DNA of 64,000 bases from Escherichia coli. GTDB lineage: Bacteria; Pseudomonadota; Gammaproteobacteria; Enterobacterales; Enterobacteriaceae. How positions within the stretch are numbered: the stretch's first letter is position 1; every line of letters starts with the position of its first letter. Shown piece after piece: positions 48,841-49,509 of this stretch. The notes beneath the pieces were generated by a model that had not been told where the DNA came from, made no database searches, and saw only the letters and a program-made list of their open reading frames with translations. Made by a program: the position numbers and the translations under genes. The stretch lies in assembly GCF_011045215.1 (NCBI RefSeq), contig NZ_CP049201.1, one strand, 5' to 3'.

Positions 48841-49509
48841 ATGCCCGTCAAGGATTTGACGGGCATTACTGCAAAGGACGCGCAAATGTTATCTGTAGTT
48901 AAACCTCTTCAGGAATTTGGTAAGCTCGATAAATGTTTGTCCAGATACGGTACGCGCTTCGAGTTTAATAATGAAAAGCAAGTTATATTTTCCAGTGATG
49001 TCAATAACGAAGATACTTTCGTTATTTTAGAGGGCGTTATCTCTCTGCGTAGAGAAGAAAACGTACTTATCGGTATTACCCAGGCTCCTTATATTATGGG
49101 GCTGGCTGATGGTTTAATGAAAAACGATATACCATACAAATTAATATCAGAAGGAAATTGTACGGGATATCATCTACCAGCCAAACAAACCATTACGCTT
49201 ATTGAACAAAATCAACTCTGGCGAGACGCTTTTTACTGGTTAGCCTGGCAAAATAGAATTCTGGAATTACGCGACGTGCAGCTCATTGGGCATAATTCCT
49301 ACGAACAAATCCGCGCAACATTATTATCAATGATTGACTGGAATGAAGAATTGCGATCACGTATTGGTGTGATGAATTATATCCATCAACGTACACGCAT
49401 ATCGCGTTCTGTCGTCGCAGAAGTTCTCGCTGCTTTGCGTAAAGGCGGCTATATCGAAATGAATAAAGGCAAACTGGTCGCTATCAACCGTTTGCCTTCA
49501 GAGTATTAA
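48841..49509 (+). CDS. yaiV: Uncharacterised protein YaiV (putative regulator)
   Basis: 222-aa ORF; its first ATG lies inside a perfect 11-bp hairpin. An alternative start at 48886 (MLSVVKPLQEF..., 207 aa) has a better Shine-Dalgarno sequence (AAGGA). Confidence 0.7.
   Translation: MPVKDLTGITAKDAQMLSVVKPLQEFGKLDKCLSRYGTRFEFNNEKQVIFSSDVNNEDTFVILEGVISLRREENVLIGITQAPYIMGLADGLMKNDIPYKLISEGNCTGYHLPAKQTITLIEQNQLWRDAFYWLAWQNRILELRDVQLIGHNSYEQIRATLLSMIDWNEELRSRIGVMNYIHQRTRISRSVVAEVLAALRKGGYIEMNKGKLVAINRLPSEY

Follow-up and report, generated by a model that had tools for sequence, protein, structure and literature searches.

A conserved and covarying hairpin, most probably a plus-strand RNA structure, in the spacer between ehaB (yaiT) and iprA (yaiV) of Escherichia coli

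The spacer between ehaB (yaiT) and iprA (yaiV) of Escherichia coli contains a long perfect inverted repeat that encloses the ATG at which the old gene model begins YaiV. This raises the question whether the repeat controls a start codon, acts as an RNA structure for the gene upstream or for the gene downstream, or is a site in the DNA. In the window (the whole stretch of 64,000 nucleotides of E. coli DNA analysed here) the gene order is ehaB, iprA, ampH on the minus strand, and sbmA. The autotransporter adhesin gene ehaB, intact in this strain, occupies positions 45934-48798 of the plus strand if the RefSeq start is used (954 aa; stop codon TAA at 48796-48798), and its open reading frame opens at ATG 45820 (992 aa). 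The iprA gene (48886-49509, plus strand, 207 aa) encodes a CRP-like wHTH regulator (PF15977) and is convergent with ampH (49510-50667, minus strand). At 49507-49512 these two genes meet stop codon to stop codon with no spacer, hence neither gene has room for a terminator of its own and their transcripts must overlap; Term-seq data (Adams 2021) place a bicyclomycin-sensitive 3' end inside ampH (MG1655 395316, minus strand).

The preliminary description of this locus reported a perfect 11-bp stem around the ATG at 48841, read as ATGCCCGTCAA-GGAT-TTGACGGGCAT (48841-48866). The stem is real and longer still: an inverted-repeat search delimits 13 perfect base pairs (TAATGCCCGTCAA / TTGACGGGCATTA), with arms at 48839-48851 and 48856-48868 and the loop GGAT at 48852-48855, so that the stem-loop spans 48839-48868, beginning 40 nt after the ehaB TAA and ending 17 nt before the iprA ATG. 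Six of the 13 pairs are G-C, and the isolated hairpin has a fold energy of -19.8 kcal/mol on either strand. It dominates the predicted plus-strand fold of the spacer (z = -3.97 in a 131-nt context, with 0 of 200 shuffles as stable), and in E. coli the minus-strand fold equals the plus-strand fold in stability. Composition-preserving shuffles of the whole 64 kb gave 0.017 perfect hairpins of at least 13 bp (loops of 3-10 nt) per window versus 2 in the real sequence; the 13-bp hairpin is thus far above chance expectation. The only other perfect hairpin of this size, at 19179-19213 and containing AATTGTTATCCGCTCACAATT, corresponds to the palindrome of lac operator O1, the lac regulatory region being within the window, and two further perfect, GC-rich hairpins of 11 bp are found at 6912-6941 (TGTCGGATGCG...CGCATCCGACA) and 13116-13141 (AGTGCGCTGCT...AGCAGCGCACT). 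The search of Rfam returned for the hairpin only chance-level matches (E >= 1.3, with bit scores far below the gathering scores of the respective families), and none of the spacer folds examined offered alternative pairings of the antiterminator type. A REP/BIME element, another dispersed repeat or the end of a mobile element was also considered and rejected, because the median number of places at which the 52-nt block containing the hairpin occurs is one per genome (5,387 E. coli genomes).

Does the hairpin sequester a start codon? The preliminary description offered two possibilities, namely that translation from the ATG at 48841-48843 is structurally gated or that the true yaiV start is the ATG at 48886, and the latter is borne out. 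The start at 48886 is used in RefSeq/PGAP and in the current MG1655 record (NP_414909.2, 394506-395129), IprA homologs across genera are 206-208 aa long, and a Shine-Dalgarno (SD) sequence AAGGA lies at 48874-48878, starting 5 nt past the hairpin and leaving 7 nt to the ATG. Gated translation from 48841 would produce a 222-aa isoform of YaiV, and in E. coli this ATG is indeed in frame, 45 nt upstream of 48886, with no stop codon between. However, the sequence upstream of it (TAATCTAAATA) contains no SD, and the ATG is not conserved as an in-frame start among the 34 related loci (designated by L numbers below) that were collected by a genome scan, from contigs encoding more distant homologs and from annotated E. 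coli records. An in-frame hairpin ATG 45 nt upstream is restricted to Escherichia and some Citrobacter. Elsewhere it is out of frame (43, 44, 46 or 47 nt, in 11 lineages in all, including Salmonella, most Citrobacter and Yokenella), followed by a stop codon in its own frame (E. albertii, L018, Raoultella, L037) or missing (AAG in L012, TTG in L031). Gating of the start codon is therefore unsupported and we regard it as extremely improbable; a genuine start codon of a 222-aa YaiV was rejected on reading frame, stop codons and family length, and RefSeq has revised the start. The "first ATG" is an annotation artefact, and the hairpin is a non-coding leader/trailer RNA. The old mis-start inside the hairpin is repeated in two protein models, P0086 from Trabulsiella (223 aa; L032, 3001-3672) and P0038 (JGI, 222 aa). 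Clones, tags or deletions directed at the "N-terminus" of IprA should be built on the 207-aa start, since the 222-aa model begins inside a non-coding RNA hairpin; the correction is already present in RefSeq, and its practical value is mainly one of annotation hygiene.

Conservation in other genomes, named in the preliminary description as a way to check the hairpin, turned out to be extensive. We found it in Escherichia (E. fergusonii and E. albertii included), Citrobacter, C. rodentium, both Salmonella species, Raoultella, Trabulsiella and Yokenella, as well as in two paralogous autotransporter-iprA loci with different downstream genes (L031 and L037). Of 5389 E. coli records, 5371 (99.7%) show 100% identity across the 52-nt block 48829-48880, and over the surrounding 301 nt 35% of the records show less than 99% identity. 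On the 5' side of the hairpin, the spacer differs greatly between loci, both in sequence and in length, and is barely alignable between genera. Spacers measure 70-96 nt and the distance from the autotransporter stop codon to the hairpin varies widely; the iprA ATG, by contrast, follows the end of the GC core at 18-22 nt in every lineage (25 nt in L037).

The differences between lineages preserve the pairing. In an alignment of 20 distinct sequences, analysed with the 13-pair structure defined above, 91.5% of the cells are paired, and both-sided changes are seen in 6 of 13 stem pairs, a number reached by 0 of 500 shuffles, while slid controls gave at most 2; the covariation score is 0.161 versus 0.087 in shuffles. 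The compensatory cases comprise G-C to A-U in C. rodentium, three swapped pairs in Yokenella, A-U to U-A in Trabulsiella, U-A to A-U in C. gillenii, two swaps in L037 and a paired insertion in L031. Strong purifying and compensatory selection on the hairpin block is thus well supported. The outer stem AATGCCC/GGGCATT is invariant, and loop positions 1 and 3 are also more invariant than a purely structural role needs, which hints at a sequence-specific partner. Immediately after the ehaB stop codon there is a small AU-rich hairpin (TTCTTC-ACTCC-GAAGAA, 48801-48817, plus strand) with a covarying counterpart, TTTCTC...GAGAAA, in the same place in Salmonella and Citrobacter; this suggests a second conserved structure.

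An autotransporter gene, with a product ending in ...VKYTW* (VKYTF* in L037), precedes the iprA-like gene in 34 of 34 loci. Several of these loci deserve a separate comment. In L031 (C. farmeri) and L037 (C. arsenatis), at about positions 2900-3000 of the locus, we found a second, paralogous pair of an autotransporter and an iprA-like gene, with other genes downstream and with the covarying hairpin retained. In L038 (E. coli 23AR0998; about positions 1748-2529) an IS1A element adjoins iprA and everything upstream of the hairpin loop is deleted, including nearly all of ehaB; the deletion endpoint falls in the loop, at the equivalent of window position 48852. The contig of L023 is labelled as Chryseobacterium sp. 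18061, and it carries an Enterobacteriaceae autotransporter-iprA locus near-identical to that of Citrobacter sp. 18056 (L022); this assembly is probably mislabelled or contaminated.

On which strand is the structure selected? One-sided changes in the stem core are few (n = 4), and all four are transitions that produce G·U pairs on the plus strand and A·C mismatches on the minus strand. In L010, L020 and L032 they leave the minus-strand hairpin 4-7 kcal/mol weaker (plus/minus-strand energies of -17.1/-13.1, -18.6/-14.7 and -20.3/-13.0), and this pattern in the alignment, although based on only four changes, points to a plus-strand RNA structure. Taken with the covariation and the non-coding status, we hold with good confidence that the element is a selected plus-strand RNA structure in non-coding sequence.

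The same changes bear on the possibility that the hairpin is a minus-strand or bidirectional terminator, at which ampH transcription, or antisense transcription through iprA, would stop (minus-strand tail UUAUUUAGAUU). Such a function would make sense of the abutting stop codons, which leave ampH no room for a terminator; the minus-strand fold is as stable as that of the plus strand in E. coli, the minus-strand tail scores better there than the plus-strand tail (-3.0 vs -2.48), and Citrobacter, Salmonella and C. rodentium have strong minus-strand tails (AUUUUUC / AUUUUUUA, -3.5 to -3.7). However, the A·C mismatches impair precisely the minus-strand hairpin, Yokenella and Trabulsiella have no minus-strand U-tract, the hairpin is kept in the paralogous loci L031 and L037, which have no ampH, and the Adams 2021 Term-seq entries examined include no minus-strand 3' end at MG1655 3944xx. 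A terminator for ampH was therefore downgraded as a candidate, given the persistence of the hairpin without ampH and the plus-strand specificity of the G·U changes, and we consider it quite improbable.

The 5' foot of the hairpin coincides with a predicted transcription start. Shimada 2014 (PMC3946193) lists the yaiU>yaiV spacer among the "constitutive promoters" bound by the RpoD holoenzyme of RNA polymerase, with an H-NS flag and the predicted hexamers TTCACT-18-TTTAAT. In the window this putative sigma-70 promoter of yaiV spans 48804-48833 on the plus strand (-35 at 48804-48809, overlapping the small AU-rich hairpin; -10 at 48828-48833), and the position of the -10 hexamer predicts +1 at about 48840. 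The -10-like sequence is part of a conserved motif, GGTAATTTAAT (48823-48833), which is found 6-7 nt before the foot of the hairpin in most loci, with a full range of 5-9 nt. A CyuR site is predicted at 48812-48834, and yaiV is induced by cysteine (PMC11408624). A scan of 48750-48950 with consensus promoter and terminator models made no call and did not score the hairpin as a terminator; on the minus strand it probably misses the hairpin because a G·U extension of the stem consumes part of the T-tail.

The overlap with the predicted +1 also brings in a palindromic DNA operator, that is, a 28-bp dyad bound by a dimeric factor (IprA itself, FNR or another protein) and composed of co-evolving half-sites, of which symmetric substitutions would be expected equally well. 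The dyad is perfect, with the invariant outer half-sites AATGCCC/GGGCATT, IprA is itself a CRP-like wHTH protein, and FNR binding at yaiV and regulation of the gene were reported in an hns stpA background (PMC3688515). We nevertheless judge an operator improbable on several grounds. The four one-sided transitions in the core (4 of 4, n = 4) preserve pairing only in the plus-strand RNA, which a DNA site would not favour, and the centre of the dyad is not palindromic. The FNR consensus, as judged by eye, is matched at no more than 7 of 10 positions. Half-sites of CRP/FNR-type dimers are spaced by about 11 bp, and the 21 bp that separate the invariant blocks here, centre to centre, are atypical for them. 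A known motif matching the dyad was not found, the palindrome occurs once per genome and thus gives no sign of a regulon, and the Enterobacter-type iprA loci lack it.

The hairpin is missing in Enterobacter cloacae, E. cancerogenus, Pseudenterobacter and L022/L023, where a canonical GC hairpin with a T-tract directly follows the autotransporter stop codon and about 50 nt of AT-rich sequence then precede iprA. Every spacer therefore contains exactly one strong hairpin, which argues for a terminator-like function on the autotransporter transcript as what the loci have in common. The E. coli hairpin is likewise a stable GC-rich stem that follows shortly after the stop codon on the transcribed strand. 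The preliminary description stated that no U-tract follows it and that it is not a classic terminator for yaiT; the former is correct for the plus strand (tail TTACTGCAAAGG) and the latter is a fair statement for E. coli. U-tails were scored in the style of TransTermHP, where random sequence gives -2.15 ± 0.58 and the canonical terminators of the related loci -3.2 to -5.7. The plus-strand tail of E. coli (AUUACUGC) scores -2.48 and those of orthologs -2.5 to -4.4, the U-rich ones being TTTTTAT in Yokenella, TTTTATG in L012/L018 and TTTATTG in Citrobacter. Judging from its tail, the E. coli hairpin would terminate weakly at best. Among the Adams 2021 Term-seq entries examined there is no 3' end at MG1655 3944xx/3945xx and none for yaiV or iprA, a weak negative because yaiT of MG1655 is disrupted by IS3 and the locus is silenced by H-NS, and the supplements of the Cappable-seq (PMC4782308), ROSE (PMC10301672) and transcriptome compendium (PMC10392735) studies contain no transcription start or transcript end at the locus. 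The role of a 3' stabiliser for the yaiT mRNA, raised in the preliminary description, is plausible.

The explanation that we favour, by a little more than an even chance and as a combined reading, is that the hairpin acts in the plus-strand RNA as intercistronic punctuation between ehaB and iprA. On ehaB transcripts no other strong GC stem-loop follows the stop codon, and this one would serve as a leaky intrinsic terminator, as a barrier to 3' exonucleases, or as both. Termination must in any case be incomplete, since the iprA SD begins 5 nt past the stem, and for the same reason every iprA mRNA would carry the hairpin, whether it arises by read-through or from a start in the spacer. For the iprA mRNA, the hairpin would be the 5'-proximal stem-loop of a leader of about 46 nt, generated from the spacer promoter, by read-through or by processing, and it might protect the message and keep the ribosome-binding site clear of upstream structure. 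The analysis itself shows the structure, its strand, its conservation with covariation, its non-coding position and the constant distance to the start codon; that the hairpin terminates or stabilises transcripts, and where the iprA mRNA begins, we infer. Several observations speak against parts of this reading: the plus-strand tail of E. coli is marginal for an intrinsic terminator (-2.48), the transcript data described above gave no 3' end, transcription start or processing site at the locus, and the outer stem and loop positions 1 and 3 vary less than structure alone would demand. Moreover, Enterobacter-type loci express iprA without an SD-adjacent hairpin, so a role in the leader is not universal.

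In another reading, the iprA leader responds to CsrA: a CsrA dimer would bridge the GGA of the loop and the GGA of the SD and control translation of iprA, the hairpin displaying the high-affinity site. The two A(N)GGA motifs, one in the hairpin loop (GGA at 48852-48854) and one at the SD (48874-48878), lie 24 nt apart, as in CsrA-regulated leaders. The SELEX core of CsrA is CARGGAU; the loop with its closing bases, CAAGGAU, matches it, and the second motif, CAA(A)GGA, overlaps the SD. Whereas the fourth loop base varies (U/C/G), the GGA before it is retained by E. coli, most Citrobacter, Salmonella, Raoultella and C. rodentium, and in many species the GGA of the SD falls within the loop of a small UGCA-AGGAA-UGCA hairpin. 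The yaiV gene is on the predicted list of CSRA_TARGET, and in a Salmonella csrA mutant grown in LB its ribosome footprints (log2FC -1.32) and translation efficiency (-1.57, flagged significant) were reduced with RNA unchanged, the gene being flagged in this data set (Potts 2019; PMC6347204) as "activated by CsrA", with its half-life given as NA.

However, CSRA_TARGET relies on the same motif logic and is not independent evidence, and the effect in Salmonella is activation, not the classical repression by blocking of the SD, and could be indirect. CLIP-seq of Salmonella (Holmqvist 2016) has a flag of 0 for yaiV (STM0374) and yaiV does not appear in the E. coli CLIP supplementary tables examined; with a gene so poorly expressed, both negatives are weak. 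A tetraloop on a 13-bp stem is moreover a tighter context than the hexaloops typical of CsrA sites. The loop GGA is lost with the hairpin kept in E. fergusonii (GAAA), C. braakii (GCAT), Trabulsiella (GCAA), Yokenella (GACT) and both paralogs, hence CsrA binding, if real, would be a lineage-specific addition and not the conserved function. A CsrA-responsive leader is to us a minor possibility. We speculate further that the hairpin and the SD hairpin together could form a dedicated post-transcriptional switch of iprA, recognised by its sequence, at the invariant AATGCCC/GGGCATT base and in the G-N-A loop, with CsrA as a possible partner, a proposal that we consider rather unlikely. If true, it would couple IprA, an RpoS-linked regulator of oxidative stress, to transcription of an autotransporter adhesin and to the Csr system, and the autotransporter-hairpin-iprA arrangement, including its two paralogous copies, would be a regulatory module and not a chance neighbourhood.

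The favoured reading, punctuation between the two cistrons, challenges no current concept, and the interest of the hairpin is modest. It is an intergenic RNA structure under strong selection beside a poorly understood regulator of peroxide resistance, and it offers a handle on how the expression of iprA is set relative to the H-NS-silenced ehaB. What continues to attract attention is how unusually strictly its sequence is conserved, together with the constant distance to the SD, the lasting association of autotransporter and iprA, and the possible link to Csr. In the searchable literature we came across no account of this particular hairpin.

Three kinds of known systems can be compared with it. 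With the CsrA-controlled leaders (of the glgC, cstA and pgaA type, or ymdA and flhDC for activation) it shares the combination of a GGA in a loop and a GGA in the SD at a distance of 24 nt, together with a csrA-dependent, perhaps indirect, change of translation efficiency in Salmonella; it differs from them in the negative CLIP results, the activating effect and the loss of the loop GGA beyond the core clade. With stabilisers of the type found in the ompA 5' UTR, and with the protective hairpins of processed polycistronic mRNAs, it shares a stable stem-loop at, or close to, the 5' end predicted for the iprA leader, a fixed short distance to the SD, and an AU-rich single-stranded linker and a small hairpin upstream. 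The ompA leader is 133 nt long, in contrast to about 46 nt for iprA, whose 5' end is a prediction. With intrinsic terminators, including leaky, attenuating ones between cistrons, it has in common a GC-rich perfect stem with a tetraloop located 40 nt past a stop codon and selected on the transcribed strand, the presence in related genera of canonical terminators in its place, and the U-rich tails of several orthologs; unlike typical terminators, it has only 3 U in 8 nt of the E. coli tail, its sequence is far more conserved, and the Term-seq entries examined place no 3' end at it. Most likely, then, the hairpin resembles a weak intrinsic terminator and a leader stem-loop combined in a single structure, an element of an ordinary kind.
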